Shown piece by piece: positions 2,030-27,729 of a stretch of 64,000 nucleotides of DNA. The DNA lies in the NCBI GenBank assembly GCA_963742595.1, contig CAVUMT010000001.1, forward strand, positions 3,946,482 to 4,010,481. Direction: 5' to 3'. Origin of the DNA: an uncultured Acidobacteriota bacterium (GTDB lineage Bacteria; Acidobacteriota; Vicinamibacteria; Fen-336). The notes under the pieces were generated by a model that was not told where the DNA came from, did no database searches, and saw only the letters and a program-made list of their open reading frames with translations. The position numbers and the translations under genes are program-made. Position 1 is the stretch's first letter. The number at the start of each line of letters is the position of its first letter.

Positions 2030-3411
2030 GAAGGCTCCTTCCCGGTGACGGTGGCGGCGAGCGTCCCCTCGTGCAGGCGGACACGGACGGCATCCCCCAC
2101 CGCGACCTCGCTCGCGGCCCGCACGAGGCGGCGGCCGGAGGCGTCCCAGACGAGCGCGTAGCCCCGCCCGAGGACGGCGAGCGGGGAGAGGCTGTCTACC
2201 TTCCCCGCGAGCCGTCCGAGATCTGACCGAGCGACTGCGATGCGAGTGACGAGAGCCGAGTCAAGCCGTTCCCTATGCCTCTGTAGCCGCTCGCGTCGCT
2301 CCGCGACTTGTCGATCCCACCGGAAGGCGTCGAGCCGTTCTCGCCGCCTCCGGTATCCCTCCCGGGCCCTTTCCAGCACTCGAAGGAGTCCCCTCTCCGA
2401 GCGCCGTCCGAGGTCGTCCACGCGCTGGGCGTGGTTGCGGATCCGCCCGCGCTCCGCGGTGAACACGCGGTGCGAGGTGACGGCGTCCACACGGGCGCGG
2501 GTGCTCGTGAGGCGCAGGCGGACGGCGGCGTCCGCGTGCCGCTGCAGGGTGTCGACCTGCGCGCGGAGCTGCGTCTTCGCCTGGACGACGCGCTCCGCCG
2601 CCGCGGAGGGCGTGGGGGCGCGCAGGTCGGCCACGAAGTCCGCGATCGTGTAGTCCGTCTCGTGCCCCACCGCGGAGATCGTGGGGATCTTCGACGCGGC
2701 GAGGGTGCGGGCCACCATCTCGTCGTTGAAGGCCCACAGGTCCTCGAGGCTTCCCCCGCCCCGGGCCACGATGAGGACGTCCAAGCCCCCGATCCGGTTC
2801 AGGGCCCGGATGCCGTCCGCGACCTCGCTCGCCGCCTCCTGCCCCTGCACGCGCGCCGGGTAGAGGAGCACGTCCAGGTTCGCGTAGCGCGAGGAGAGGA
2901 CGCGCAGGACGTCCTTGAACACGGCCCCCGTGGGCGAGGTCACCACTCCGATGCGGCGGGGAAGCATGGGCAGCGGGCGCTTGCGCGACGGCTCGAAGAG
3001 GCCTTCCTTGCCGAGCTTCTCCTTGAGCTCCTCGAACGCCTGCTGGAGCGACCCCTTCCCCAGGGGCTCCAGGACCTGGACGGAGATCTGGTACTCGCCC
3101 CGCGGCGGATAGACGCGGACGGCCCCCCGCGCCACCACCTTCATGCCGTCCTGGGGCTTGAAGCGGATGAGCCTCGCGTCCGTCTTCCACACCACCGCAC
3201 GGATCTGTGCTTTCTCGTCCTTGAGCGAGAAGTACCAGTGGCCGGAGCCCGCGAGCTTCAGGTTGGAGATCTCGCCCTCCACCCACACGTCGGCGAACTC
3301 CGTCTCGAGCACGCCCTGGAGCCGGTCCGTGAGCTCGCGGACGCTCCACGCGCGCCGCCGCGGCAGCTTCGGCGACGCCGCTCCGAAGTCGATTCCCTTC
3401 TGCTCCGTCAT
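2026..3411 (-). CDS. xseA: Exodeoxyribonuclease VII large subunit
   Basis: VWVEGEISN, SGHWYFSLKD, ARGGGSLEDLWAFN, AVGHETD, APTPSAAAE. Start placed at ATG 3411 because the ORF-track ATG (3426) lies inside a TAGAAT -10 box. Confidence 0.95.
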   Translation of the reverse strand: MTEQKGIDFGAASPKLPRRRAWSVRELTDRLQGVLETEFADVWVEGEISNLKLAGSGHWYFSLKDEKAQIRAVVWKTDARLIRFKPQDGMKVVARGAVRVYPPRGEYQISVQVLEPLGKGSLQQAFEELKEKLGKEGLFEPSRKRPLPMLPRRIGVVTSPTGAVFKDVLRVLSSRYANLDVLLYPARVQGQEAASEVADGIRALNRIGGLDVLIVARGGGSLEDLWAFNDEMVARTLAASKIPTISAVGHETDYTIADFVADLRAPTPSAAAERVVQAKTQLRAQVDTLQRHADAAVRLRLTSTRARVDAVTSHRVFTAERGRIRNHAQRVDDLGRRSERGLLRVLERAREGYRRRRERLDAFRWDRQVAERRERLQRHRERLDSALVTRIAVARSDLGRLAGKVDSLSPLAVLGRGYALVWDASGRRLVRAASEVAVGDAVRVRLHEGTLAATVTGKEPS

Positions 3412-6685: not shown

Positions 6686-8203
6686 GCGCCGCACCACCTC
6701 CGCCGGGCTCGCCGTCCGCTTGCGCGGAGCGTGCGGCTCGAGGGGAAGCGTGATGCGGGCGGTGGTGCCCCGGCCGGGCGCGCTCTCGAGCGCGATCGCT
6801 GCCGCCGTGGTCGGCCACGATCTTGTGGGTGAGGGCGAGGCCGAGGCCGAGCCCGGTGTCCTTGGTCGAGAAGTAGGGCTCGAAGGCGGTGCGGACCTCC
6901 TCCGTCGCTCATGCCCTTGCCCGTGTCCGTGACCTCGATGCAGAGCTCGGGCGGGCCGCCGTTCGTCGCCGCGACGGATGGAGACGGAGAGCAGGCCGCC
7001 CTCGGGCATGGCGTCGACGGCGTTGATCATCAGGTTCAGGAAGCAGGTCTTGAGCAGCTCGGGGTCGACCACCACCCGGGGCAGGTCCGGCTCCGCGTCC
7101 ACGGTCGAGCGCGATGCCCTGGTCCTGGGCCTTGTGGTCCACGAGCGAGGCGACCTCGCGCAGCGACCTCGTCCACGGCGCAGAGGCGCGGGTCGAGCCG
7201 CATCGGCTTGCCGAAGGAGAGGAAGTCGCCGACCAGCCGGTTGAGCCGGCTGATCTCGCCCTTCATCGTCTGCGAGGATGCGGTCGAAGTCGTCCCGGCG
7301 CGCGCTCTCCTCGGGGGCCATGCGCTGGCGCACGTGGTCGATCGAGAGGTTGATGAAGTTCAGCGGGTTGCGGATCTCGTGGGCCACCGCGGAGGCCAGC
7401 CGGCCCGAGGGCGGTGGAGCGCTCCGCGAAGTGCAGCCGCTCCTCGAGCCGGCGGTTCTCGCGCAGCCGCTCCACCATCTCGTTGAAGGTGCGCGAGAGG
7501 CTGGCGATCTCGTCGCCGCCGTCGAGCTTGCACCTGCACCGAGAGGTCGCCCGCGGCCACCTTGCGGGCGGCGTCCGTGAGCTCCTGGAGCGGCCGGCTG
7601 AGGGACCACGACGAGGTAGAGCGACAGCAGGATCCCCACGGCGAAGACGCCGAGGGTCGCGATGAGGCGGCTCAGGAACGCCTCGTGGGAGAGGGCCGAG
7701 AAGTCGTCGAGGGTGCGGGTGATGAGCAGCGTGCCCACGCGGCGGTCGCCCACCACGATGGGGATGGTGAGGGTGGAGCTGGTCTGGCCGGTGGCCGAGG
7801 GCGGATCGCCCAGCACGCCCCTGATCACGAACTCCGCGCCCCGGCTTCTTCTTTCGCACCAGTCGCTTACCGACGATCTTGGGGTTCGTCGAGGCCTGGA
7901 CCTCGTCCGCCGCGTCGGCGATCGTGACGTCCTTCACCCCGAGCTGCGCGGAGCTTGTCCGCGTAGGCGTTGAGGACGACCTTGGGGTCTCCTTCGCCCA
8001 CCGGCTGCTCCTGGGCGACCTCGATGGCGGTGGACAGTTCGTCCGTGTAGTCCCGAATCTGCGAGAATAGGCTGCGTTCGCTCAAGAGGTGCAGGAAGAA
8101 CAGGCTCGTGCCGGACAGCACCAGCAGCGACAGTCATCATGAGGAGCAGCTTGGTCTTGAGGTCGAGAGCGAGGAGCCCCCGCGAGAATCCGCCAGCCGG
8201 CAT
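6682..8203 (-). CDS. HAMP-domain sensor histidine kinase (multiple frameshifts)
   Basis: Two TM segments, HAMP (DEIASLSRTFNEM), H-box AHEIRNPL, N-box NLMINAVDAM, G boxes DTGKGM and GTGLGL pieced across frames. Confidence 0.85.
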
Positions 8204-16885: not shown

Positions 16886-19252
16886 ATGATCGGCGAGACC
16901 CTTTCCCACTACCGGATCCTGAGCCGGCTCGGGGGCGGCGGGATGGGGGTCGTGTACGAGGCCGAGGACGCGCGCCTGGGGCGCCGGGTGGCCCTCAAGC
17001 TCCTGCCCGACGAGACGGGAAACGACCCGCTGGCGCGGGAGCGCTTCGAGCGCGAAGCGCGCGCCGCCTCCGCGCTCAACCATCCACACATCTGCGTGAT
17101 CCACGAAATCGGCGAGGACAAGGGACACTCCTTCATCGTGATGGAGCTCCTGGAGGGCCAGACCCTGAAGTACCTGATCGGCGGCAGGCCGATGCCGACG
17201 GAGCGGGTCCTGGAGCTGGGGGCGCAGATCGCCGACGCGCTGGAGGCGGCGCACGCCAAGGGGATCGTGCATCGCGACATCAAGCCCGCGAACATATTCG
17301 TGACCGAGAGGGGCCAGGCGAAGCTCCTCGACTTCGGGCTCGCCAAGCGGACGACGAAGCGAGCGACCACGGACGCGGACGCGATAACGATGAGCCAGCC
17401 CGCGACCTTGTCGCGTGAGGGGACGGTAGTGGGGACGGTGGCGTACATGTCTCCCGAGCAGGCGCGCGGGAAGGAGCTGGACGCGCGGACGGATCTCTAT
17501 TCGTTCGGGACGGTGCTGTACGAGATGACGACGGGTGTGCGGCCCTTCTCGGGGGAGAGCACGGGGGAAGTCTTCGAGGCGATCTTCACCCGGGAGCCGG
17601 TGGCGCCCGCACTTCTCAACTTGGAGGTGCCCGGGGAGCTGGCGCGGATCATCGCCAAGGCGATGGAAAAAGACCGCGGCCTGCGCTACCAGGGCGCTTC
17701 GGACGTGCGCGCGGACCTTCAGCGATTGCAGCGGGACACGACGGCGGGAGGGAAGACCGCGGCCGCTCCTGGTCCCCGGTCTCGCCGCGCATTCTGGCTG
17801 GGCCTGGGGACGCTCGGGCTCGTGCTCGCCGTGGGAGCGGGCGCCTGGCTGGGACGGCGTCCGGAAGCCGGCTTCGGCGACCCCGGTGCCGCAGGCACCT
17901 CGTCGATCGCAATCCTGCCCTTCGCGGACATGAGCCCGGGCAAGGACCAGGAGTACCTGGCCGACGGTCTCTCCGAGGAGCTGCTGAACAGGCTTTCCAA
18001 GATCCCGAAACTGCGGGTCACGGCTCGCACCTCGGCCTTCCAATTCAAGGGCAAGAACGAGGACCCCAAGGTCATCGGGCGGAAGCTCAACGTCGCCACG
18101 CTGCTCGAGGGAAGCGTGCGCAAGGCCGGCAACCACGTGCGGATCACCGCGCAGCTCGTGAAGGTGGCGGACGGGTTCCGTCTCTGGTCGGAGACCTACG
18201 AGCGCGAGCTCACCGACATCTTCGCGGTGCAGGACGACATCGCGCGCTCCGTATCCGCCGCGCTCGAGGTCGAGCTGCTGGGGAAGGACTTGCGGCCCCT
18301 GCCCTCTCGCGGCGGAAACGTCGAGGTCTACAACCTCTATCTCCAGGGCAACTTCTTCCAGCAGCGCCGCACGAAGCAGGACATGGAGATGTCGATCGCC
18401 TACTTCGAGCGGGCGCTCAAGCTCGATGCCGGCTATGCGCCCGCATGGTTGGGTCTGGCCGGGACCCGCACGCGCCAGGCGGACAGCGTCTTCATCCCCG
18501 TGGACGAGGGCTACCGGCTCGCCCGCCGGGATGTGGAGAAGGCGCTCGCCCTGGATCCGAGCCTGGCGGATGCGCACGCGATCCTCGGCTGGATCCGGAG
18601 GACCTACGACTGGGACTGGCCGGGCGCGCATGCCGCGTTCAAGCGGGCCCTCGAGCTCGAGCCCGGAAATGCCACGGTCGTCCGGGGGGCGGCAATGATG
18701 GCCTCGCCCCTGGGCCGCTTCGAGGAAGCGCTCGCCCTGGATCGGCGCTCGGTCGAGCTCGATCCCCTGAGCGTGCGTACGCACGTCAACAGCGCCCTCC
18801 ATTCCCTGGCCCTCCGCCGGCTGGACGAGGCGGAAGCGGCCCTGCGCCGGGCGCGCGACCTCGGCCCGGACTTCCCCACTCTCCACCTCGTGACCGGCCG
18901 GATCTTCCTCGCGCGGTCGATGCCGGAGGCGGCCCTCCGGGAGATGGAGCAGGAGAAGGACCCGTTCTGGCGCCTCCAGGGAATGGCTCTCGCGTATCAC
19001 GCCTTGGGGCGGAGGAAGGAGGCGGACGCGGCCCTCGCCGAGCTGCGGGAGAAGCACGAGGCCGATACCTTCCAGATCGCCGAGGTCTACGCCTTTCGGG
19101 GCGAGGTGGACGAGGCGTTCGAATGGCTCGAGCGCGCCTACGCGCAGCGCGACGGCGGACTCGCAGACATCAAGGGGGACGAGCTGCTCGAGAGCCTCGA
19201 ATCCGACCCGCGCTACAAGGCCCTTCTGGAGAAGTTGCGTCTCCCCCTCTGA
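16886..19252 (+). CDS. Hanks-type Ser/Thr kinase + TM + TolB-like + TPR repeats
   Basis: GGGGMGVVY, VALK, HRDIKPAN, DFGLAK, GTVAYMSPEQ; TM; SIAILPFADMS..DGLSEEL; TPR C-terminus. Confidence 0.92.
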   Translation: MIGETLSHYRILSRLGGGGMGVVYEAEDARLGRRVALKLLPDETGNDPLARERFEREARAASALNHPHICVIHEIGEDKGHSFIVMELLEGQTLKYLIGGRPMPTERVLELGAQIADALEAAHAKGIVHRDIKPANIFVTERGQAKLLDFGLAKRTTKRATTDADAITMSQPATLSREGTVVGTVAYMSPEQARGKELDARTDLYSFGTVLYEMTTGVRPFSGESTGEVFEAIFTREPVAPALLNLEVPGELARIIAKAMEKDRGLRYQGASDVRADLQRLQRDTTAGGKTAAAPGPRSRRAFWLGLGTLGLVLAVGAGAWLGRRPEAGFGDPGAAGTSSIAILPFADMSPGKDQEYLADGLSEELLNRLSKIPKLRVTARTSAFQFKGKNEDPKVIGRKLNVATLLEGSVRKAGNHVRITAQLVKVADGFRLWSETYERELTDIFAVQDDIARSVSAALEVELLGKDLRPLPSRGGNVEVYNLYLQGNFFQQRRTKQDMEMSIAYFERALKLDAGYAPAWLGLAGTRTRQADSVFIPVDEGYRLARRDVEKALALDPSLADAHAILGWIRRTYDWDWPGAHAAFKRALELEPGNATVVRGAAMMASPLGRFEEALALDRRSVELDPLSVRTHVNSALHSLALRRLDEAEAALRRARDLGPDFPTLHLVTGRIFLARSMPEAALREMEQEKDPFWRLQGMALAYHALGRRKEADAALAELREKHEADTFQIAEVYAFRGEVDEAFEWLERAYAQRDGGLADIKGDELLESLESDPRYKALLEKLRLPL

Positions 19253-19284: not shown

Positions 19285-19312
19285 GAAACGGGAACGCGAT
19301 GGCGTTGTCTAA
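19285..19312 (+). promoter_or_regulatory. Putative ECF-sigma promoter of the CHAT gene
   Basis: GAAAC-N17-GTCTAA; same motif and spacing at 23004-22977 and 24595-24622. Confidence 0.6.
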
Positions 19313-19360
19313 GGCACGGGACGTATCGAATTGCAGCCATGACGAGCAGGAAGAGGAGCC

Positions 19361-22100
19361 ATGGGCCGCACGCTGATGCTGCTACTCGCCGTCCTGGCGT
19401 GGAACGCCGGCGGGACAGAGCCGGCCCCGCGGCAGACCGCCGCGGCTGAAGCCCAAGCCGCCCGACGGGATCGCGGAGCGGCTGGGGGAGGCCACGAGCC
19501 TCCTCGACCGCCGTGCGCACGCGGAGGCGCTGAAGATCCTCCAGGCGCTCCTGCCTGCGGCCGAGGCGGGGAAGGACGAGGCCCTGCTGGCCGAGACCAT
19601 CCATCAGACGGCCCGGGCCTATTACTTCGGCGGCGACTACGGGACGGCTCTCCCATTGTGGGAGCGCGCCCTCGCGATGAGCGGTGCCCTGGCGAACCGG
19701 CCCCTCCAGGCCCAGATCCTTCGCCACATGGGCCGGCTTCACGAGGTGACGGGGGCCTATGCCCAGTCCCTCCGCTGCAGCGAGCAGGCGGTGGGCGATC
19801 TTCCGGGACTTGGGCGATCGCCAGGGGGCTGCCCGCGCCTTGATCGGCATCGGGGCCGCCCTCGACATGATGGGTGACCACCCGCGCGCGCTCGAGGCCT
19901 ATGAGGAAGCCTGGCCGGCGCTCGAAGAAGCGGGTGACTCGGCGTTCTACCTGCTGCTCAACGAGGTCGCCATCACCTACAAGAACCTGGGCCGCTACGA
20001 GGACGCGTTGGCGTCCTACGCGCGCTCTCGCGAATGGAGCAAAAGGACCGGCGACAAGCTCGGCGAACCGCGCACGCTCAACAACATCGGCAACGTCTAT
20101 CTCCTCCTCGGGCAATACGAGAGGGCCATCGAGCAGTACCAGGAGGGTCTGGTCCTCTCTCGGGAGATCAATGAGCGGCGCGGCGCCGTCATCCTTCTCG
20201 GCAACCTCGCGGAGGCATGGAACCGGCTCGATGACCCTCGGCGCGCCCTTGGCTATTCTCGCCAGGAGCTCCAGATCGCCCGCGAGCTGGGTCTTCGACA
20301 CTTCGAGGCCGACGCGCTTCACGGCATCGCGGAGAGCGAGGTCGCGCTCGGAGACCTGAAGGAGGGCCGGACACACTATCTGCAGGCACTGGATCTCTAC
20401 AAGGAGATAGGAGCACTCGGAGGTGAGCAGGGGACTCGCCTTGCGCTGGCGCGCCTTGACCTGCAGGAGGGTCGGCCCGTCGAGGCGCGCCTCCTCGCGG
20501 AGCAAGTCCTGACCGTCGGGTCGGAGAGCCGGGCGCCCGAGACCGACTGGCAGGCCCGCTTCGTTCTGGCCCGGGCTGCGCGAGCCAGCGGCCGATCGGA
20601 TGAGGCCGTGGCCTCGCTACGTGCCAGCCTGGGCGTGATCGACGGCCTGCGCGGGCGGCTCCTCACGGACACCGGCAAGATCGGCTACCTCGACGCGCGG
20701 CACGCGGTGTCCCACGAGCTCGTCGACCTGCTCGCCGAGAGGGGGGACGCGGCGGCATCGCTGGAGGCAGCCGAGGCCGCGCGGGGCCGGGCCTTCATCG
20801 ACCTGCTGGCGGCCCGGCAGGTCGCGCTCCGGCCCTCCGAGGCCGCGTCACTCGCCGCGATTCGTGATGGCGAGGCCCGGCTGCGCGCCCAGGAGAACGC
20901 GCAAACCGCCGCCGAAGTCCTGGTCGCGGAGCTGGTCCGGACGCGAGCCGCCACGAAGCCGAGCTGACCGGCAGGTTGCGTACGCTTCGCGAGGAGCAAC
21001 CCGAGCTGGCCAGCCTCGTCGCCGTGGAACCCCTCACCTCCAGCCAGATCGTGGAGACCGCGAAACGGTTGGACGCCACGGTGGTCGAGTACCTGGTCAC
21101 GGAGAAGCGGCTCTTCGTGTGGGTCGTGCGACCCACGGGCGAGATCGCCAGCGCCACCGTGGACATCGGCCGCGACGCGCTCCGGGAGAAGGTGCGGAGC
21201 CTGCATGTCAAGCTGGGCGGCCTCGATCTCGAGGGTCTCAGAAATCCGGGAGCCGTCCGGCGCGACCTGGCGGACCTCTACAGAGTCACGCTCGCCCCCG
21301 TGGCTCGCCACCTCCCGTCGGACCCACATGCGCTGGTCTACGTGATCCCGCACGACGCGCTCTTCCTGTTGCCGTTCGCCGCCCTCGTCGACGAGCGCGG
21401 CCGATACCTGGTGCAGACCCACACCCTCGCCTCGGCGCCGTCGCTGGGCGTCTTGCAGTACACGGCCGAGAAGAAGCGGCGGGCGATCTCTCCCGAGGCG
21501 CCCCGGCTCCTCGCCCTGGCCGATGCCCGTCCTCCCAAGGACTCGGGGTTGGGCGCATTGCCCGGCGCGCGCGCGGAGGTCCAGCGAGTGGGACGGGGAA
21601 TTCCCGTCGACCGGCGGACGATCCTGGCGGGTGCGGCGGCCACCGAGGCCAGCGTGAAGCGATTGGGACCTGGGCAGACCATCCTGCACTTCGCGGTGCA
21701 CGGCCTGATCGACGACGGCCATCCGCTCGAATCCGCGCTGGTTCTCACCGAGGGTGACGGCGAAGACGGCTGGCTTCGGGTGCGCGAGGCCTTCGGCCTC
21801 GACCTCCGGGCCGACCTCGTGGTCCTGAGCGGATGTTCGACCGGGCTGGGCAAGCTCTCGGGTGACGGCATCCTCGGCCTGTCGCGTGCCCTTCTCTACG
21901 CGGGAACGCCCTCCGTGGTCGTGAGCCAGTGGGACGTGAGCGACCTCGCCACGCTTCACCTCATGGATGGCTTCTACGCCGGCCTGCGGTCCGGACGGAG
22001 CAAGGCACTTGCCCTGCGCGATGCGCAGCTCCGGACCCTCCGCCGCTATCCTCATCCGGCACTGTGGAGCGCCTTTCTGCTCGTCGGCGAAGCGCGCTGA
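19361..22100 (+). CDS. TPR-CHAT (caspase-like) protease with hydrophobic N-terminus (frameshifts ~19470, ~19800, ~20965)
   Basis: GAGGAG RBS; MGRTLMLLLAVLAWNAGG; TPRs (TLNNIGNVY); CHAT dyad ILHFAVHG and VVLSGCSTG; SQWDVSD; HPALWSAF. Confidence 0.88.
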
Positions 22101-22120
22101 GGTGAAGCGAGTGGCCGCCG

Positions 22121-22924
22121 CTACCCCAGCTGAATTTCGGACGGGACCTCTGGATTCATCAACGACGCGCCACCATCCGCGTAGATGACTTGCCCTGTGA
22201 TCCAGCCGGCCTGCGCTGAACAAAAGAGGGTGGCAACGTTGCCGACATCCTCAGGCGTTCCCAGGCGTCCCATGGGAGTCCACCCGCGCGCGTGCCAATT
22301 CCTGATGAGATCTTGCGCGGGCTGCGGCAGCGTGTTCAATACGCTGTCCTCGGTCCATCCAGGGCTGATCGCATTCACCGTGATGCCGCGTCTGGCGAGG
22401 GTCACCGCGAAGTAGCGAACGAGAGACTCCAGCGCCGCCTTGGCTGAACCCATGCCGACCCAGGGTTGCAGTCCGCCGGTACGGCTCCCTTCTGCGTAGG
22501 TGATGGCGAGGATCCTCCCTCCTTCGCCCATGAGGGAAACCGCTTCCCGAACCCCGACGAGGAATGCCTTCGCCTGCGAATCGAACGACGCATCCCACTG
22601 TTCGAGGGTGATGTCCATCGGCGGGTAGAAGAACGCGGCGGCCTCCGGCCGCGCGTTGCTGACGAAGATGTCGAGGGTGCCGAACTCACCCTTGACCTTG
22701 CGGAACATTTGGGTGATCTGTTCTGGGCGCGATACATCGGCCTGGACCACGAAGCCGTCCACGCCAAGCTTACGCACCCGAGCAAGCGTGTCGACGGCGG
22801 CCGCCTCGTTTTGGTAGTAGTGGATCGCCACCTTGACGCCGCTCGCCGCCAGTCTCAGGGCGATTCCTCTACCAATGCCACGGGAGCTGCCGGTGACCAG
22901 CGCGTGCTTTCCGTTCAGGGACAT
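22121..22924 (-). CDS. FabI/FabL-like short-chain dehydrogenase/reductase
   Basis: TGSSRGIG, ITY, WVGMGSAKAALE, NAISPG, ITGQVIYADGG. Confidence 0.9.
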   Translation of the reverse strand: MSLNGKHALVTGSSRGIGRGIALRLAASGVKVAIHYYQNEAAAVDTLARVRKLGVDGFVVQADVSRPEQITQMFRKVKGEFGTLDIFVSNARPEAAAFFYPPMDITLEQWDASFDSQAKAFLVGVREAVSLMGEGGRILAITYAEGSRTGGLQPWVGMGSAKAALESLVRYFAVTLARRGITVNAISPGWTEDSVLNTLPQPAQDLIRNWHARGWTPMGRLGTPEDVGNVATLFCSAQAGWITGQVIYADGGASLMNPEVPSEIQLG

Positions 22925-22976
22925 GTCGACCTCCTTCGAATGCGCGCCTCTGTTTCGGCAGCTCGTGCTTCAGCGC

Positions 22977-23004
22977 TTTGACAGCGGAGGAGGCGTTCTG
23001 TTCC
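22977..23004 (-). promoter_or_regulatory. Putative ECF-sigma promoter of the SDR gene
   Basis: Minus strand GGAAC-N17-GTCAAA, upstream of a GGAGG RBS. Confidence 0.6.
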
Positions 23005-23029
23005 GCGGTGGTACGAGTACCCGCGGCGA

Positions 23030-23719
23030 TCAGGGCCTGAAGCGGTAGACCGTCCCGTCCAGGACGACCAGGACGCGTTCGCCCAGGGCGGCGTAAGGGG
23101 CGAGGGCCGGGAGGCGGGAGAGAAGGGCGGACCGCTGGTCGGGACCGTTCACCTCCGTGATCGGCAGGCCGGCCGCCGCGTCGAAGCTGACATCGGTCCA
23201 CTCGCCGGCCGCGAGGCGAAACGTCTTGCCGGCGACCCGCCGGCCTGCCCCCCGCGTGACCAGGAGTCCCGGGTCGAGCGGGTCGACGCGCGGCATTGCG
23301 GCCCCCGGTGAGCTCGCCGGTGACGGCGCCATCTCGCTCGGCGGGGGCGGAGGGGAGATCGAAGCGCCTGGTGGCGTGGGGGACGGCCGGGTTTCTTCTT
23401 CGGGAGTGCCAACCCAGTTCAACCGGGTGACCGTGGCCACCGCGAAGACCAGGGCTGCCGCTGCCGCGAGCGGTAGCCAGCGGTGCAATGCGAAGCCGGG
23501 CCGTACTACAGGCATCGGCCGCGGGATCAGGCCGTTCTGGGCTGCGCGGGCGAGGAGGGCCAGGGCCTCGCGACACTCGGCGCATCCGACCAGGTGCGCG
23601 TTCAGGACCTCTCGCTCCCGGGGGTCCAATCGGCCCTCCAGGGATGCCGCCAGAAGGCCCGGGTCGTGGGGACTGCTCAAGGTCGCCTCCGGTTCATCCC
23701 GTGTCTTAGACGGTCTCAT
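23030..23719 (-). CDS. zf-HC2 membrane anti-sigma factor
   Basis: HLVGCAEC (HxxxCxxC), one TM (WLPLAAAAALVFAVATV), Pro-rich linker, C-terminal domain; ATGA overlap with the sigma gene. Confidence 0.8.
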   Translation of the reverse strand: MRPSKTRDEPEATLSSPHDPGLLAASLEGRLDPREREVLNAHLVGCAECREALALLARAAQNGLIPRPMPVVRPGFALHRWLPLAAAAALVFAVATVTRLNWVGTPEEETRPSPTPPGASISPPPPPSEMAPSPASSPGAAMPRVDPLDPGLLVTRGAGRRVAGKTFRLAAGEWTDVSFDAAAGLPITEVNGPDQRSALLSRLPALAPYAALGERVLVVLDGTVYRFRP

Positions 23720-24546
23720 CGTGCTTCCGTTCCGCCGTCGCGCGCCCCCAGAATGGTCCCGAGATCCAGTTGGAGGCGGCGCAGGTCCATGCCGGAGCGC
23801 AGCGTCTCCGCCGAGACCCCGGTTCGGCTCCGGGCCAGGGAATCGATGGAGACGCGCAACTGCTCACGCGCCCGCTTCAACCTGCGGCTGAGGCCGGCCT
23901 TCGAACCGCCCACGGCGATCACCATCTCGTCGAGGGTGAGGTCTTGCTCGTAATGGAGGAGGATGAGCAGCTTGTCCTCCGCGGACAGGCCCTCCATCGC
24001 CTCGCGTACCAGGCCTTCGAAGAGCGATCGGTCTTCGGTGGCGACCACATCCGGCGAGCTTCCCGAGCGTTCCTGCCGCCGCGGACCGGGTCCTTCGCCC
24101 TCCAGCGGCAGCCACCGGCGATCGGCCTTGACCGCGTTGAGGGCCGCGTGGGCGACGATGGCGCCGAGCCACGTCCGGAGCGTGCTCCGCCCTTCGTAGC
24201 GCGCCATCTTCTTCCGCTCCCACAGGTCGGCGACCACCTGGTCGGCGACGTCGCTCGCGGCAGGCTCCCGGAGGAACCGGCGCGCGAAACCCCGGACGAA
24301 GTCGCCGTGGCGGGCCAGGCACTCTTCCCAGGCCCTCTCCTCGCCCTGGGCGCACGCGCTGGCGAGATAGAGGTCGTCCAGGCTGAGCCTGCGGACGTGC
24401 TCGTCGGGCGTCCGATCGGCAGACGCGGCAAGGGCCAGCTCGACCAGCCGCTCCGTGAAGGTCGATGCGTCCAGTGCGAAGCGGACGTGCACCTGCGACG
24501 CGACGAGGGCGAGAACGCGCTCGCGCTGCCCCTGTCGTGTTTGCAT
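23716..24546 (-). CDS. ECF-type RNA polymerase sigma-70 factor with N-terminal extension
   Basis: DLYLASAC..AWEE; region 2 DVADQVVADLW..RYEGRSTLRTWL; region 4 LLILLHYEQDLTLDEM..LSRRLKRAR. Confidence 0.85.
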   Translation of the reverse strand: MQTRQGQRERVLALVASQVHVRFALDASTFTERLVELALAASADRTPDEHVRRLSLDDLYLASACAQGEERAWEECLARHGDFVRGFARRFLREPAASDVADQVVADLWERKKMARYEGRSTLRTWLGAIVAHAALNAVKADRRWLPLEGEGPGPRRQERSGSSPDVVATEDRSLFEGLVREAMEGLSAEDKLLILLHYEQDLTLDEMVIAVGGSKAGLSRRLKRAREQLRVSIDSLARSRTGVSAETLRSGMDLRRLQLDLGTILGARDGGTEAR

Positions 24547-24594
24547 GACCCTCCCGCGCGAAGCATCCGGCGGAAGCACGGCTGCGTCAAGGCT

Positions 24595-24622
24595 GGAACA
24601 GATCTCCACGCGCATTGTCCAA
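24595..24622 (+). promoter_or_regulatory. Putative ECF-sigma promoter of the delta-60 protein gene
   Basis: GGAAC-N17-GTCCAA; AAAGGAG RBS at 24661-24667. Confidence 0.6.
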
Positions 24623-24674
24623 CCGGTGAAGCACCCCTCTTGCGCAGCCTCGTAGCGCGAAAAGGAGTACGTCA

Positions 24675-27600
24675 ATGCGGCTTAGTCCGTCGTCGGCGAT
24701 TCGCTGCCACCTCCGGCGCTCTGCCCTCTTCGTGCGTGGCGTGGCTCCTGGCATGGCGCTGCTGTCCTGTTTGATCGTGGCCCAACCCCTGGCCGCCGCC
24801 GACGGGGACCTCGACCCGACCTTCGGCATCGGAGGGAAGGTCATCGGCGAGAACAATGAGGGTGTTGGGACGGACAGTATTGCCATTCAGCCCGACGGCA
24901 AGATACTCATCGCGGGACGACGAGGAGTCCAGCTCGTTCGCTACAACGTGGATGGCAGCCGGGATCTGGGCTTTGGTGATGGCGGTACCGCTTCGGGGTT
25001 CGGGTTGGTCGCCCTCCAGCCGGACGGAAGGATCGTGACGGCCGGAAGCGTCGGCGTCGGTTTCCTTGTGGACATGGCGCTCAGGCGCCACAACGCCGAC
25101 GGCAGCCTGGATCCGACGTTCGGCAGCGGAGGCGAGGTCATCGATGACTGGGGGGTGGGAGGTGGCGACTCCCCCGCGAGTCTCGCTCTGCTGCCTGACG
25201 GCAGGATCCTCGTGGGGGGGACGGCCTTCAACATCCCTCCCGGCGGCGACAGCGCGGTGGTTCTGGCACGCTATCTTCCCGACGGAAGCCCGGACCCGAG
25301 CTTCGGGAGCAACGGAAGGGTCGTCGTCGACAGAGTCGGCACCAATGGTGCGGCGGCCAGGGCGTTCGCTCTCCAAACCGACGGCAAGGCCGTCGCGTTA
25401 TGGTTTGGCCTCACGTCATATCACCTCGGGCGTTACATGCCCGACGGCTCGCGCGACCCAAGCTTTGGCAGCGGCGGCGTGGTGGTCCTCAGCGACCACA
25501 CCCTGAACGATGTTGCCATCCAAGCGGACGGGAAGATCCTCGTCGGGGGATCGGTCCCTAACTCCCTGGGTTACTCCGATTTCCGCGTAAGGCGGCACAA
25601 CGCGGACGGCAGCCCGGACCTGGGCTTTGGCACGGGCGGCCATGTGACCACCGACTTCGAATCGGGCGACGACGTGGTGCGAGCCCTCGCCGTGCAGGCG
25701 GACGGGCGCATCCTTGCGGTGGGGTCTGCCCAGGGAGATGACCAAAACATCTTCAATCCCGCCTTTGCCCTCGCGCGCTACGAGATGGACGGCGCGCTGG
25801 ATTCGAGCTTCGGCACGAACGGGCGGGTGAGGACGGCATTCGATCTGGGGGGCGTCGCTTGCGGCAGCGACCGGGCCAATGCCGTCGCGCTCCAGGCCGA
25901 TGGCAAGATCATCGCCGGCGGGGTGACCTCCAATACTTCTACCGGAGAGTGCAACGAGGGCTCGCCGGCCCTCGCCCGTTATCTCAGCCTGGGCGTCCCC
26001 GATACCGATGGCGACGGCGTGCCGGATGCCACCGACAACTGTATTGAGGCGATGAACCCCGGCCAGGGGGACGCCGACGGGGACGGCATCGGGGACGTCT
26101 GCGATCCCGACACCGACGAGAGCGTGAGCGACGTTGTCGCAGCGGGCAGCACTCGCACGACGGACGCCGAGGGGGATGGCGCGACGCTGGCCGACCCGAT
26201 CGAGACCACCGTGACGAGCCCCAACGCGGGCATCCTGACCATCGCCGAGATGCCGGCCTCCTTCCCGCCGCCGGCCGGCTTCCAGCTCCTCGGCTGGCAG
26301 GTCGTGATCACCGCCCCGACAGCCTCGGCCGCGGCCCCTCTCCGGATCGTCTTCCAGCTCGACGCCTCGATCCTCCCGCCGGGCACCTTTCAACCCCAGA
26401 ACGTGATCCAGGTGTTCCGCAACGGAACCCAGGTCCCGGCGTGCTCTGGCGCTCCGGGGACGGCCGCGCCCGATCCCTGCGTCGCCAGTCGGTCGCTGAT
26501 AGCGGGCGACGTCAGGCTCGAGATCCTGACATCCACGGCCAGTACCTGGAACTTCGGAGTCTCCGAGGGGGAGGCCCCGACCGTGCCTGGCGTGCCGGCG
26601 CTGTCCGCGGGTCCCAATCCGAATCGGGGCGTCTTCAGCCTGTCCTGGACGTCGTCGACCGACACGCAGGGCGATCCCATCCTGTACTTCCTCCGGCACC
26701 GAGACAGCGACGATGCCGATTTCAGCGACGCCGTGAACGCCCTGGCGTCGAACACCCATACGTTTGCCGACCCCTTGCCGGAACAGGAAGGGACGTGGCT
26801 CTACCGGGTGAAGGCATCGGACGGGACATTCGAGAGCGACTACTCGGCGGCCTCCGCGCCGATCAAGGTCGACAGGACGGCGCCGGCCCCGCCGTCCGTG
26901 ACCGCGGACCGGCCGCCCGACTTCCCCGGGAATGGCGGGTGGTACCGGGACTCCGTGAGCCTCAGCTTCAGCTCGGGCCCGGATCCGATCCTGGGAGACG
27001 GGAGCGCGGGCAGCGGCATCGATCTGGCATCCCTCCCCGCGCCGGCCACGGTCGTGACCAGCGGCTCGACCACGGTGGAAGGCACCGTGAAGGACCTCGC
27101 GGGCAACGAGTCGGCCTCGGCCGGGCTCGCGGTGCAGGTGGACGCGACGTCGCCGTCGCTCGCGATCACATGCCCGTCGGCTCCGGTCCCGGTGGGCGCC
27201 GCGGCCAGCGCCGCCTGGACGGCCGGCGACGCCGAGTCAGGGCTGGGCACTCCCGCTTCAGGGAGCGTGCCCCTCGACACCAGCAGCGCCGGCCAGAAGA
27301 CCGCTATCGCGCCGGCGGCCCTCGACAACGTCGGCCACACCCGCAGCGCCTCCTGCACGTACTCGGTCGTGGGCGGTGCAACGTACGACTTCCGAGGTTT
27401 CTTCCCGCCCGTGGCCAACTTTCCGGCCCTGAACCGCGTGGCCGCGGGATGGATCGTTACCCTTCGTTTCAGCCTGGGTGGTAACAGGGGTCTCGGGATT
27501 TTCCCCGCCGGATATCCAAGGGTAGGGGAGATCGCCTGTGGGTCCACCGAGCCCGTGGAAGGGACCGGTGCCGCCTGTGGGTCACCTGTTCTACGTGCGC

Positions 27601-27729
27601 ATCCTCGATCAGTACATCTACCTGTGGCGGACCGACCACCGGTGGGCCGGGACCTGCCGTCAGATCGTGGTCAAGCTGGACGACGGCACCGAGCACCGCG
27701 CGAACTTCAAGTTCCTGAGAAGCCATTGA
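24675..27729 (+). CDS. Large secreted protein: delta-60 repeats + TSP type-3 repeats + Ig/FN3-like + C-terminal PxKF-like domain (frameshift ~27570)
   Basis: Repeated LDPTFG.GG / ALQPDGKI; DTDGDGVPDATDNC..DADGDGIGDVCD; YDFRGFFPPV..RFSL; shifted frame ends YIYLWRTD..CRQIVVKLDDGTEHRANFKF. Confidence 0.8.

Follow-up and report, generated by a model that had tools for sequence, protein, structure and literature searches.

A CHAT-domain protease gene co-conserved with an extracytoplasmic function sigma factor and its membrane anti-sigma factor in Acidobacteriota and Gammaproteobacteria

How a caspase-like protease might come to control a sigma factor is the question raised by a locus at positions 19285 to 27729 of a 64,000-nucleotide stretch of DNA (the window) from an uncultured Acidobacteriota bacterium (assembly GCA_963742595.1, contig CAVUMT010000001.1). 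The locus encodes a protein that combines tetratricopeptide repeats with a CHAT protease domain (TPR-CHAT), a sigma factor of the extracytoplasmic function (ECF) type, a zinc-binding membrane anti-sigma factor, a short-chain dehydrogenase/reductase (SDR), and a large exported delta-60/TSP3 protein. A preliminary description of this DNA had proposed that these proteins, perhaps with a second input from a Ser/Thr kinase encoded upstream, form a switch in which CHAT cleaves the anti-sigma factor. A survey of related loci separates a conserved core from the rest: the sigma factor, the anti-sigma factor, and the TPR-CHAT protein are co-conserved in 20 of 20 loci from two phyla, as had been anticipated, whereas no such conservation is seen for the kinase, the SDR, or the delta-60 protein. 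The closest characterized system is DdvA/DdvS of Myxococcus xanthus, and the anti-sigma factor and the separate TPR-CHAT protein may correspond to the two halves of the fused DdvA.

The loci compared came from a 4.7-kb contig (G012), seven metagenome contigs, and 14 species-representative genomes, which gave 20 distinct loci after removal of duplicates; one further contig (L023) ends before any CHAT gene could appear and was kept outside the 20. A TPR-CHAT gene lies at or near the genes for the sigma factor and the zf-HC2 anti-sigma factor in every one of these loci. The usual gene order is CHAT, sigma, anti-sigma, with overlaps of 0 to 4 nt, and in G012 the order is sigma, anti-sigma, and an intact TPR-CHAT gene encoding 883 residues, with gaps of 6 to 8 nt. 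The hosts belong to the Acidobacteriota (including Thermoanaerobaculia and "gp6") and the Gammaproteobacteria (including Steroidobacteraceae). The module is patchily distributed, since G012 is the only one of 60 relatives of the source genome to contain an orthologue of the sigma factor (66% identity). A more distant sigma factor (29% identity) from a Bradymonadia metagenome-assembled genome (MAG) has neither a CHAT nor an anti-sigma partner. No fourth conserved gene was found in a crude all-against-all comparison of the open reading frames (ORFs) across the loci.

Because the G+C content of the window is approximately 70%, genes were picked by third-position GC together with Pfam matches. The sigma gene (23706..24546, minus strand) is preceded by the ribosome-binding site GGGAGGG and encodes a protein of about 280 residues with Sigma70_r2 and Sigma70_r4 domains; the ORF as assembled ends at 23716. 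With sigma2 and sigma4 domains only on one side, and an HxxxCxxC zf-HC2 domain and one transmembrane segment on the other, the two proteins are an ECF sigma factor and a class I zinc anti-sigma (ZAS) factor, in agreement with the preliminary description. In profile comparisons the core of the sigma factor (residues ~57-239) is most like RpoE, AlgU, and SigH, with SigW also matched, and it is flanked by conserved, family-specific extensions of ~50 residues at the N terminus and ~40 residues at the C terminus. The protein matches TIGR02937 above the cut-off. Its best NCBIfam match with near full-length coverage is to TIGR03001, "Myxococcales family 1" (residues 37-263 of 276, E = 5e-22), and at 78 bits this match falls well short of the 154.6-bit cut-off, so the sigma factor is regarded as belonging to a related family and not to TIGR03001 itself. 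There are 282 homologues at E <= 0.001, the best 120 of which are mostly 265-300 residues long and 48-91% identical. The terminal extensions and the recognizable promoter described below mark what is apparently an undescribed subgroup of ECF sigma factors.

The anti-sigma gene (23030..23680, minus strand) probably starts at TTG 23680, behind GGAGG; the ORF as assembled extends to 23719. Across 16 family members the protein consists of an N-terminal H..HxxxCxxC domain, a transmembrane helix (WLPIAA...), a proline-rich linker of variable length (about 10 to 80 residues), and a conserved C-terminal domain of ~85 residues with the pattern RRVAGKTFRL.AGEW.D..FD....LP......P.LAPY..LG.RV.VV..GTVYRF. 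Among the zinc residues, there is no variation at H42, C46, or C49 and very little at H18. An AlphaFold2 (AF2) model comprises a three-helix ZAS bundle, a transmembrane helix (81-102), and a disordered linker that leads to a C-terminal alpha/beta domain, for which the predicted local distance difference test score (pLDDT) exceeds 95. When this model was used for a fold search, only the ZAS part was matched, weakly, to RsiW, RslA, and ChrR, and the C-terminal domain had no match in the PDB. The sequence profile of the family gave RslA as the best match, followed by the N terminus and transmembrane segment of DdvA (8rot_B, E = 1.6e-3; 8rlz), and also matched ChrR and RsiW. In a library of 1.84 billion proteins, 118 representatives match this profile at E <= 1e-30. 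The best 150 relatives are mostly 180-250 residues long, and none of them is fused to TPR-CHAT because even the longest of the few larger proteins has 467 residues. A conserved (D/E)xxLLxxR-(G/S) segment lies directly before the folded C-terminal domain; as a matter of speculation, it could be a site of cleavage by CHAT, and it loosely recalls the ExxR sites of separase as cited in PMC11506125. The C-terminal domain also occurs in a second architecture, at the end of a 459-residue CarboxypepD_reg protein encoded downstream of a sigma fragment on a 4.7-kb contig (L048:497-1876).

The TPR-CHAT gene (19361..22100, plus strand) encodes a signal-like N terminus (MGRTLMLLLAVLAWNAGG), TPR repeats (19759-20967), and a CHAT domain (20976-22100; Pfam E = 3e-63) that contains the dyad His in FAVHG (21690-21704) and the dyad Cys in LSGC (21825-21836). 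Members of the family are 880-945 residues long, and 14 full-length proteins that could be aligned are 36-50% identical; the dyad His and Cys are invariant in all 14, within conserved HFAxHG and LSGC blocks. The N terminus is hydrophobic and signal-like in 15/15 CHAT proteins when judged by eye and in 11/15 when judged by a simple hydropathy cut-off, and a few carry a lipobox-like Cys in this region. The protein thus appears to be exported, and with such an N terminus it would meet the anti-sigma factor in the periplasm. An AF2 model of the G012 orthologue (pLDDT 86, predicted TM-score 0.82) shows a TPR superhelix of ~20 helix pairs followed by a CHAT alpha/beta domain. In a Foldseek search of the PDB with this model, DdvA ranked first by E value (8rw5, 1.4e-16; 8rot_A, 6e-16), with human separase and Csx29 (rank 6) within one to two orders of magnitude of it. 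A search of the PDB with the sequence of one family TPR-CHAT matched only TPR proteins and did not reach DdvA, so the fold search was needed to make this link.

The preliminary description had noted an intact His/Cys dyad in the CHAT protease, and the dyad is confirmed, but the gene is not a single open frame in the assembly. The source genome (6.8 Mb in 6 contigs) has a scored completeness of only 57%, and rpoB and rseP from the same assembly were used as internal controls for judging frameshifts. The rpoB gene (C1:1234008-1238304) falls into 11 pieces or more; its frame changes ~8 times, and a TGA interrupts it internally. The rseP gene (C1:1808543-1809781) is likewise split across frames. 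Because an essential gene such as rpoB cannot carry that many real frameshifts, the assembly must be full of indel errors, at roughly 1-2 per kb, and any call of a pseudogene or frameshift in this genome is therefore unsafe. The TPR-CHAT gene is read in four frame segments, namely, the signal-like N terminus, the first TPRs, ORF 19759-20967, and ORF 20976-22100, with three frameshifts at about 19460, 19795, and 20960. This rate (~1.1 per kb) is at or below the rpoB background. The pieces are colinear with residues 15-882 of the intact 883-residue orthologue from G012 and, compared with it, contain no internal stops or deletions; CHAT is split alike in two related long-read MAG loci (L035 and L037). 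The three frameshifts are judged to be assembly errors, since rpoB and rseP are also broken. The delta-60 gene has a frameshift at about 27575, which leads into a C-terminal PxKF domain ending at 27729. In the tail of the sigma gene, comparison with a 90%-identical relative revealed that a G-run at about 23747 is one G longer here, which shifts the last ~15 codons, and the true stop is likely the TAA at 23706-23708, which is the TAA of the GTCTAA motif described below. The ATGA overlap of the sigma and anti-sigma genes, previously taken as a sign of translational coupling, is an artefact of this 1-nt insertion.

DdvA is a ZAS anti-sigma factor with a periplasmic TPR-CHAT on the same chain, and it is degraded by RseP once the TPR-CHAT has been removed (PMC11506125). 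The family described here resembles DdvA/DdvS in its ZAS domain, its one transmembrane helix, its flexible linker, its TPR-CHAT with a His-Cys dyad (H862/C907 in DdvA; PMC11506125), and its ECF sigma partner. In sequence length alone, the His-Cys spacing is 45 residues in both, and the tail after the Cys is 86 residues here and 84 in DdvA; DdvA is also the top fold match by E value for TPR-CHAT, and its N terminus is among the matches of the anti-sigma profile. The most obvious difference is that the anti-sigma factor and TPR-CHAT are encoded by separate genes in all 20 loci, whereas they form one polypeptide in DdvA. The anti-sigma factor has an extra conserved C-terminal domain for which the fold search returned no match to DdvA, and the sigma factor, at ~280 residues with extensions at both ends, differs from DdvS. 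The regulon would consist of exported propeller, peptidase, and OmpA-type proteins rather than an island for CRISPR (clustered regularly interspaced short palindromic repeats) and CBASS (cyclic oligonucleotide-based antiphage signaling system) defense. The search for DdvA-type proteins covered fused proteins only, with finds in Myxococcota and a single Comamonas (PMC11506125), in contrast to the Acidobacteriota and Gammaproteobacteria in which the split form occurs. For DdvA itself, the idea that CHAT initiates regulated intramembrane proteolysis could not be put to the test, as protease and target share a single polypeptide and the signal is not known (PMC11506125).

Two other systems invite comparison. 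Csx29 of the type III-E craspase is a TPR-CHAT protease whose cleavage of Csx30 sets a sigma factor free (PMC10028731), and the two systems share the TPR-CHAT fold and the tie between such a protease and sigma release. They differ in that the loci examined here lack Cas7-11, a CRISPR array, and a Csx30-like inhibitor, the inhibitor being a membrane ZAS anti-sigma factor, and in that the protease appears to be exported. No Cas families were present in the gene tables of 8 loci, no CRISPR array was present in the window, and no PADLOC defense model was matched apart from a generic TPR model, which bears out the earlier view that the circuit is CRISPR independent. The second system is RpoE/RseA/DegS/RseP, with which the family shares an RpoE-like sigma core, a single-pass anti-sigma factor, a promoter of the same general type, and, as proposed here, a dedicated periplasmic sensor-protease acting in the first step; an RseP homologue is encoded in the genome (PF02163 above the cut-off at C1:1808543-1809781). 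The proposed site-1 enzyme differs from the PDZ-serine protease DegS in being a caspase-fold cysteine protease with a TPR sensor, its gene is located in the sigma operon, and the anti-sigma factor is of the ZAS type and not RseA. Among the papers searched, none links a stand-alone CHAT protein to an ECF/anti-sigma pair, and the main text of the ECF classification paper does not mention CHAT or caspase. What is already known is that a TPR-CHAT can be linked to an ECF anti-sigma factor; new features are the division into two proteins, the subgroup of sigma factors, the C-terminal domain of the anti-sigma factor, the positions of the promoters, the export of the cargo, and the range of hosts.

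Promoters used by RpoE and AlgU are of the GGAAC...GTCnAA type. The preliminary description had noted a shared motif of this kind before the CHAT, SDR, and delta-60 genes, and all three copies are present: GAAAC-N16-TGTCTAA at 19285..19312 (plus strand), 48 nt before the CHAT start codon; GGAAC-N16-TGTCAAA at 22977..23004 (minus strand), which begins the reading toward the SDR gene 52 nt ahead of its start and lies 25 nt past the stop of the anti-sigma gene; and GGAAC-N16-TGTCCAA at 24595..24622 (plus strand), which diverges from the sigma gene and precedes the start of delta-60 by 52 nt. A fourth copy, GGAAC-N16-CGTCTAA at 23706..23733 (minus strand), can be added; it falls within the final codons of the sigma gene and precedes the anti-sigma start by 54 nt. 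The pattern G[GA]AAC-N17-GTCNAA occurs 29 times in 13.6 Mb (both strands of the 6.8-Mb genome), and four of these copies are within this locus of 5.4 kb, a clustering far above chance. The other copies mostly read GTCGAA, and many are inside coding sequence. The only other noncoding copy in the genome (C1:4100545, GGAACCCTTCGTCTTCAGGGGTGTCCAA) is ~90 kb past the end of the window and 82 nt upstream of a gene for a 599-residue membrane or exported protein with a vWA domain (C1:4100545-4102454), which may be a distal member of the regulon.

Because the pattern was derived from this locus, an independent test of the motif was made in the relatives. The broadened motif G[GAC]AA[CG]-N15/16-TGTC[ACT]A[AG] has 34 copies in 20 family loci, a density of 49 per Mb-strand; the figure for the genome is 0.96 per Mb-strand, and 19 control ECF loci yielded one match in all. 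The motif occupies two fixed positions. In 14 of 21 loci it is found in the last sigma codons, just upstream of the anti-sigma gene, and in 13 of 21 it is found within 350 nt after the anti-sigma gene, with near-variants in several others; the window copy at 22977..23004 differs very little from the one that follows the anti-sigma gene in L022. The genes behind the second position vary from locus to locus, and nearly all encode exported proteins, including a PD40 propeller, an M48 peptidase, LamG/Calx-beta/TSP3 and SLH/TIG proteins, a Vgb-lyase-like propeller, a Ycf48-like BNR propeller, and OmpA-family, PAP2/VCPO, and Peptidase_S74 proteins. These placements support the view that the motif acts as the promoter cognate to sigma factors of this family and that the regulon is small and mostly local, as would be expected of the self-contained regulon proposed earlier, except that the conserved feedback would act on the anti-sigma factor and not on the protease.

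In many family loci (L021-L043; for example, L039:10777 and L028:8720), the sigma gene ends with a Val codon and a stop codon, GTC TAA, and these six bases also serve as the -10 element of the anti-sigma promoter. TAA is used as the sigma stop codon even in genomes of ~70% GC. It looks as though the last sigma codons are under constraint at the DNA level.

Positive feedback on the protease had also been proposed as a design feature of the circuit. No motif was found upstream of CHAT in the canonical CHAT-sigma-anti-sigma operons, several of which have sigma-70-like -10 boxes in this region when inspected by eye, and neither positive feedback on the protease nor autoregulation of the whole operon can be retained as a family feature. 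The sigma-type promoter on CHAT is a local trait, seen in this genome and perhaps in L028. The feedback that is conserved, as far as promoter placement indicates, would run through the promoter before the anti-sigma gene and not through one before the sigma gene. L028 has four motif copies, at 3127 (minus strand) and at 3225, 4802, and 8720 (plus strand), in a multipromoter layout like that of the window; they include a divergent pair before genes for a Peptidase_S74 protein and an NHL-repeat protein and one copy ~340 nt upstream of CHAT. Short tandem and inverted repeats are located just upstream of CHAT in two other loci, with CCCTAAT/ATTAGGG-like units in L025 (~7180-7260) and CCCAACT/CCCCAGTT units in L039 (~7100-7240).

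The explanation favored here, with about an even chance of being correct, is that the exported CHAT protein cleaves the periplasmic part of the anti-sigma factor in trans, after which RseP would act and the sigma factor would be released. In the resting state, the sigma factor would be held at the membrane by the single-pass zinc anti-sigma factor, and the exported TPR-CHAT would share the periplasmic compartment with the linker and C-terminal domain of the latter. A periplasmic cue sensed by the TPR superhelix would activate the His/Cys dyad of CHAT, which would then clip the linker or the domain as a site-1 protease in trans, leaving the remainder of the anti-sigma factor to be removed by RseP (site-2) and cytoplasmic proteases. 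The freed sigma factor would transcribe from G(G/A/C)AA(C/G)-N16/17-GTC(A/C/T)AA promoters, of which the one before the anti-sigma gene would provide negative feedback and the others would stand before one or a few genes specific to the lineage, most of which encode exported proteins; in the window, these would be the CHAT, SDR, and delta-60 genes. Promoter use by the sigma factor, cleavage of the anti-sigma factor, and dependence on RseP are steps that we infer. A more specific proposal, held tentatively and with slightly less than an even chance, is that CHAT is a dedicated, trans-acting, caspase-family site-1 protease, a "split DdvA" and the first such case, with the anti-sigma C-terminal domain as its docking or recognition module, and that the whole is a portable switch wired to differing exported cargo in different soil bacteria.

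Several observations weigh against trans cleavage by CHAT. The CHAT reading frame of the window is itself broken in the assembly, and signal peptides were judged from hydropathy and inspection only. The TM-score of the CHAT model is 0.49 to DdvA versus 0.55-0.58 to separase, so by this measure DdvA is not clearly the better match. The CHAT gene of the window carries a sigma-type promoter like those of the targets, which also fits a CHAT that is a target itself. The action of CHAT as a site-1 protease has been proposed for DdvA and is still a hypothesis there (PMC11506125), and in the present family, too, the link between CHAT and the anti-sigma factor is a hypothetical one.

It is conceivable, though rather unlikely, that TPR-CHAT does not cleave the anti-sigma factor at all and is instead a periplasmic co-anti-sigma factor or sensor that docks on the C-terminal domain and shields the anti-sigma factor from RseP, like the bulky domain of DdvA or like RseB in the case of RseA; release by a signal, or self-cutting, would then leave the anti-sigma factor to be degraded by other proteases. 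The TPR-CHAT of DdvA blocks RseP merely by its presence (PMC11506125), the conserved and confidently folded C-terminal domain without a PDB match could be a docking module, and co-conservation would be explained equally well. However, the invariance of the His and Cys in 14/14 proteins with only 36-50% identity argues that catalysis is under selection, even if that catalysis could still be autoproteolysis. An improbable alternative would make TPR-CHAT an effector or maturation protease for the exported cargo, coexpressed with the sigma factor but not regulating it, with the anti-sigma factor inactivated by an unrelated site-1 protease or by oxidation of its zinc site, and ZAS anti-sigma factors can indeed respond to oxidants (PMC11506125). 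The promoter motif that CHAT shares with the SDR and delta-60 genes in the window and the motif upstream of CHAT in L028 are in keeping with such a role, but the cargo differs in nearly every locus whereas CHAT is constant, CHAT is the first gene of the regulatory operon in most loci and there lacks a sigma-type motif, and the DdvA fusion joins exactly these two parts.

The preliminary description had taken Csx29/Csx30 as its precedent, and a cytoplasmic circuit of this kind, in which CHAT would cleave the cytoplasmic sigma-binding part of the inhibitor, could draw on the release of a sigma factor by Csx29 through Csx30 cleavage (PMC10028731) and on the place of Csx29 among the fold matches. 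Such a circuit is nevertheless hardly credible for this family, in which the CHAT N termini are signal-like, the anti-sigma factor is a ZAS protein of the membrane whose large periplasmic part is conserved, neither Cas7-11 nor CRISPR is found nearby, and DdvA ranks above Csx29 by E value. Finally, the frameshifts (three in CHAT and one each in delta-60 and the tail of the sigma gene) could mean that the system is decaying in this genome and that CHAT and delta-60 are true pseudogenes. This is very unlikely when set against the ~8 frame changes and internal TGA of rpoB, the split rseP gene, the completeness of 57% for 6.8 Mb in 6 contigs, and a CHAT gene that is free of in-frame stops and deletions and colinear with its intact orthologue throughout.

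The other family loci contain essentially no homologues of the kinase, the SDR, or the delta-60 protein. The kinase gene (16886-19252, plus strand) encodes a membrane Ser/Thr kinase with one transmembrane segment and a C-terminal TPR region. Its suggested role as a second input is not supported, since a homologue was found near only 1 of the 20 loci (L025), where it adjoins its own Sigma70_ECF gene, a pairing that resembles the kinase-linked ECF groups. The SDR gene (22121..22924, minus strand; adh_short_C2) is convergent with the TPR-CHAT gene. Its product, which has no signal peptide, had been called FabI-like; it is an SDR, but its nearest relatives are of the FabL/FabG type, and it falls below every equivalog cut-off. 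The delta-60 gene (24675..27729, plus strand), divergent from the sigma gene, encodes the large exported protein expected there, with delta-60 (DUF5122) beta-propeller repeats and TSP3 and ending in a PxKF ("rightmost") domain (NF038114, 27480-27729) that is split by the frameshift at about 27575. The ORF as assembled continues to 27923 in the wrong frame, past the PxKF domain. The SDR and delta-60 genes would be lineage-specific targets of the system.

The family adds a new small periplasmic domain without a match among solved structures, and its wiring is unusual in that a sigma-type promoter stands before the anti-sigma gene with its -10 element overlapping the Val and stop codons of the sigma gene. 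The split form also makes the site-1 hypothesis for DdvA experimentally tractable: because the protease and substrate are separate proteins, a simple in vitro cleavage assay and a three-plasmid reporter become possible. With this family, sigma control linked to TPR-CHAT is extended beyond the Myxococcota and beyond CRISPR and defense.

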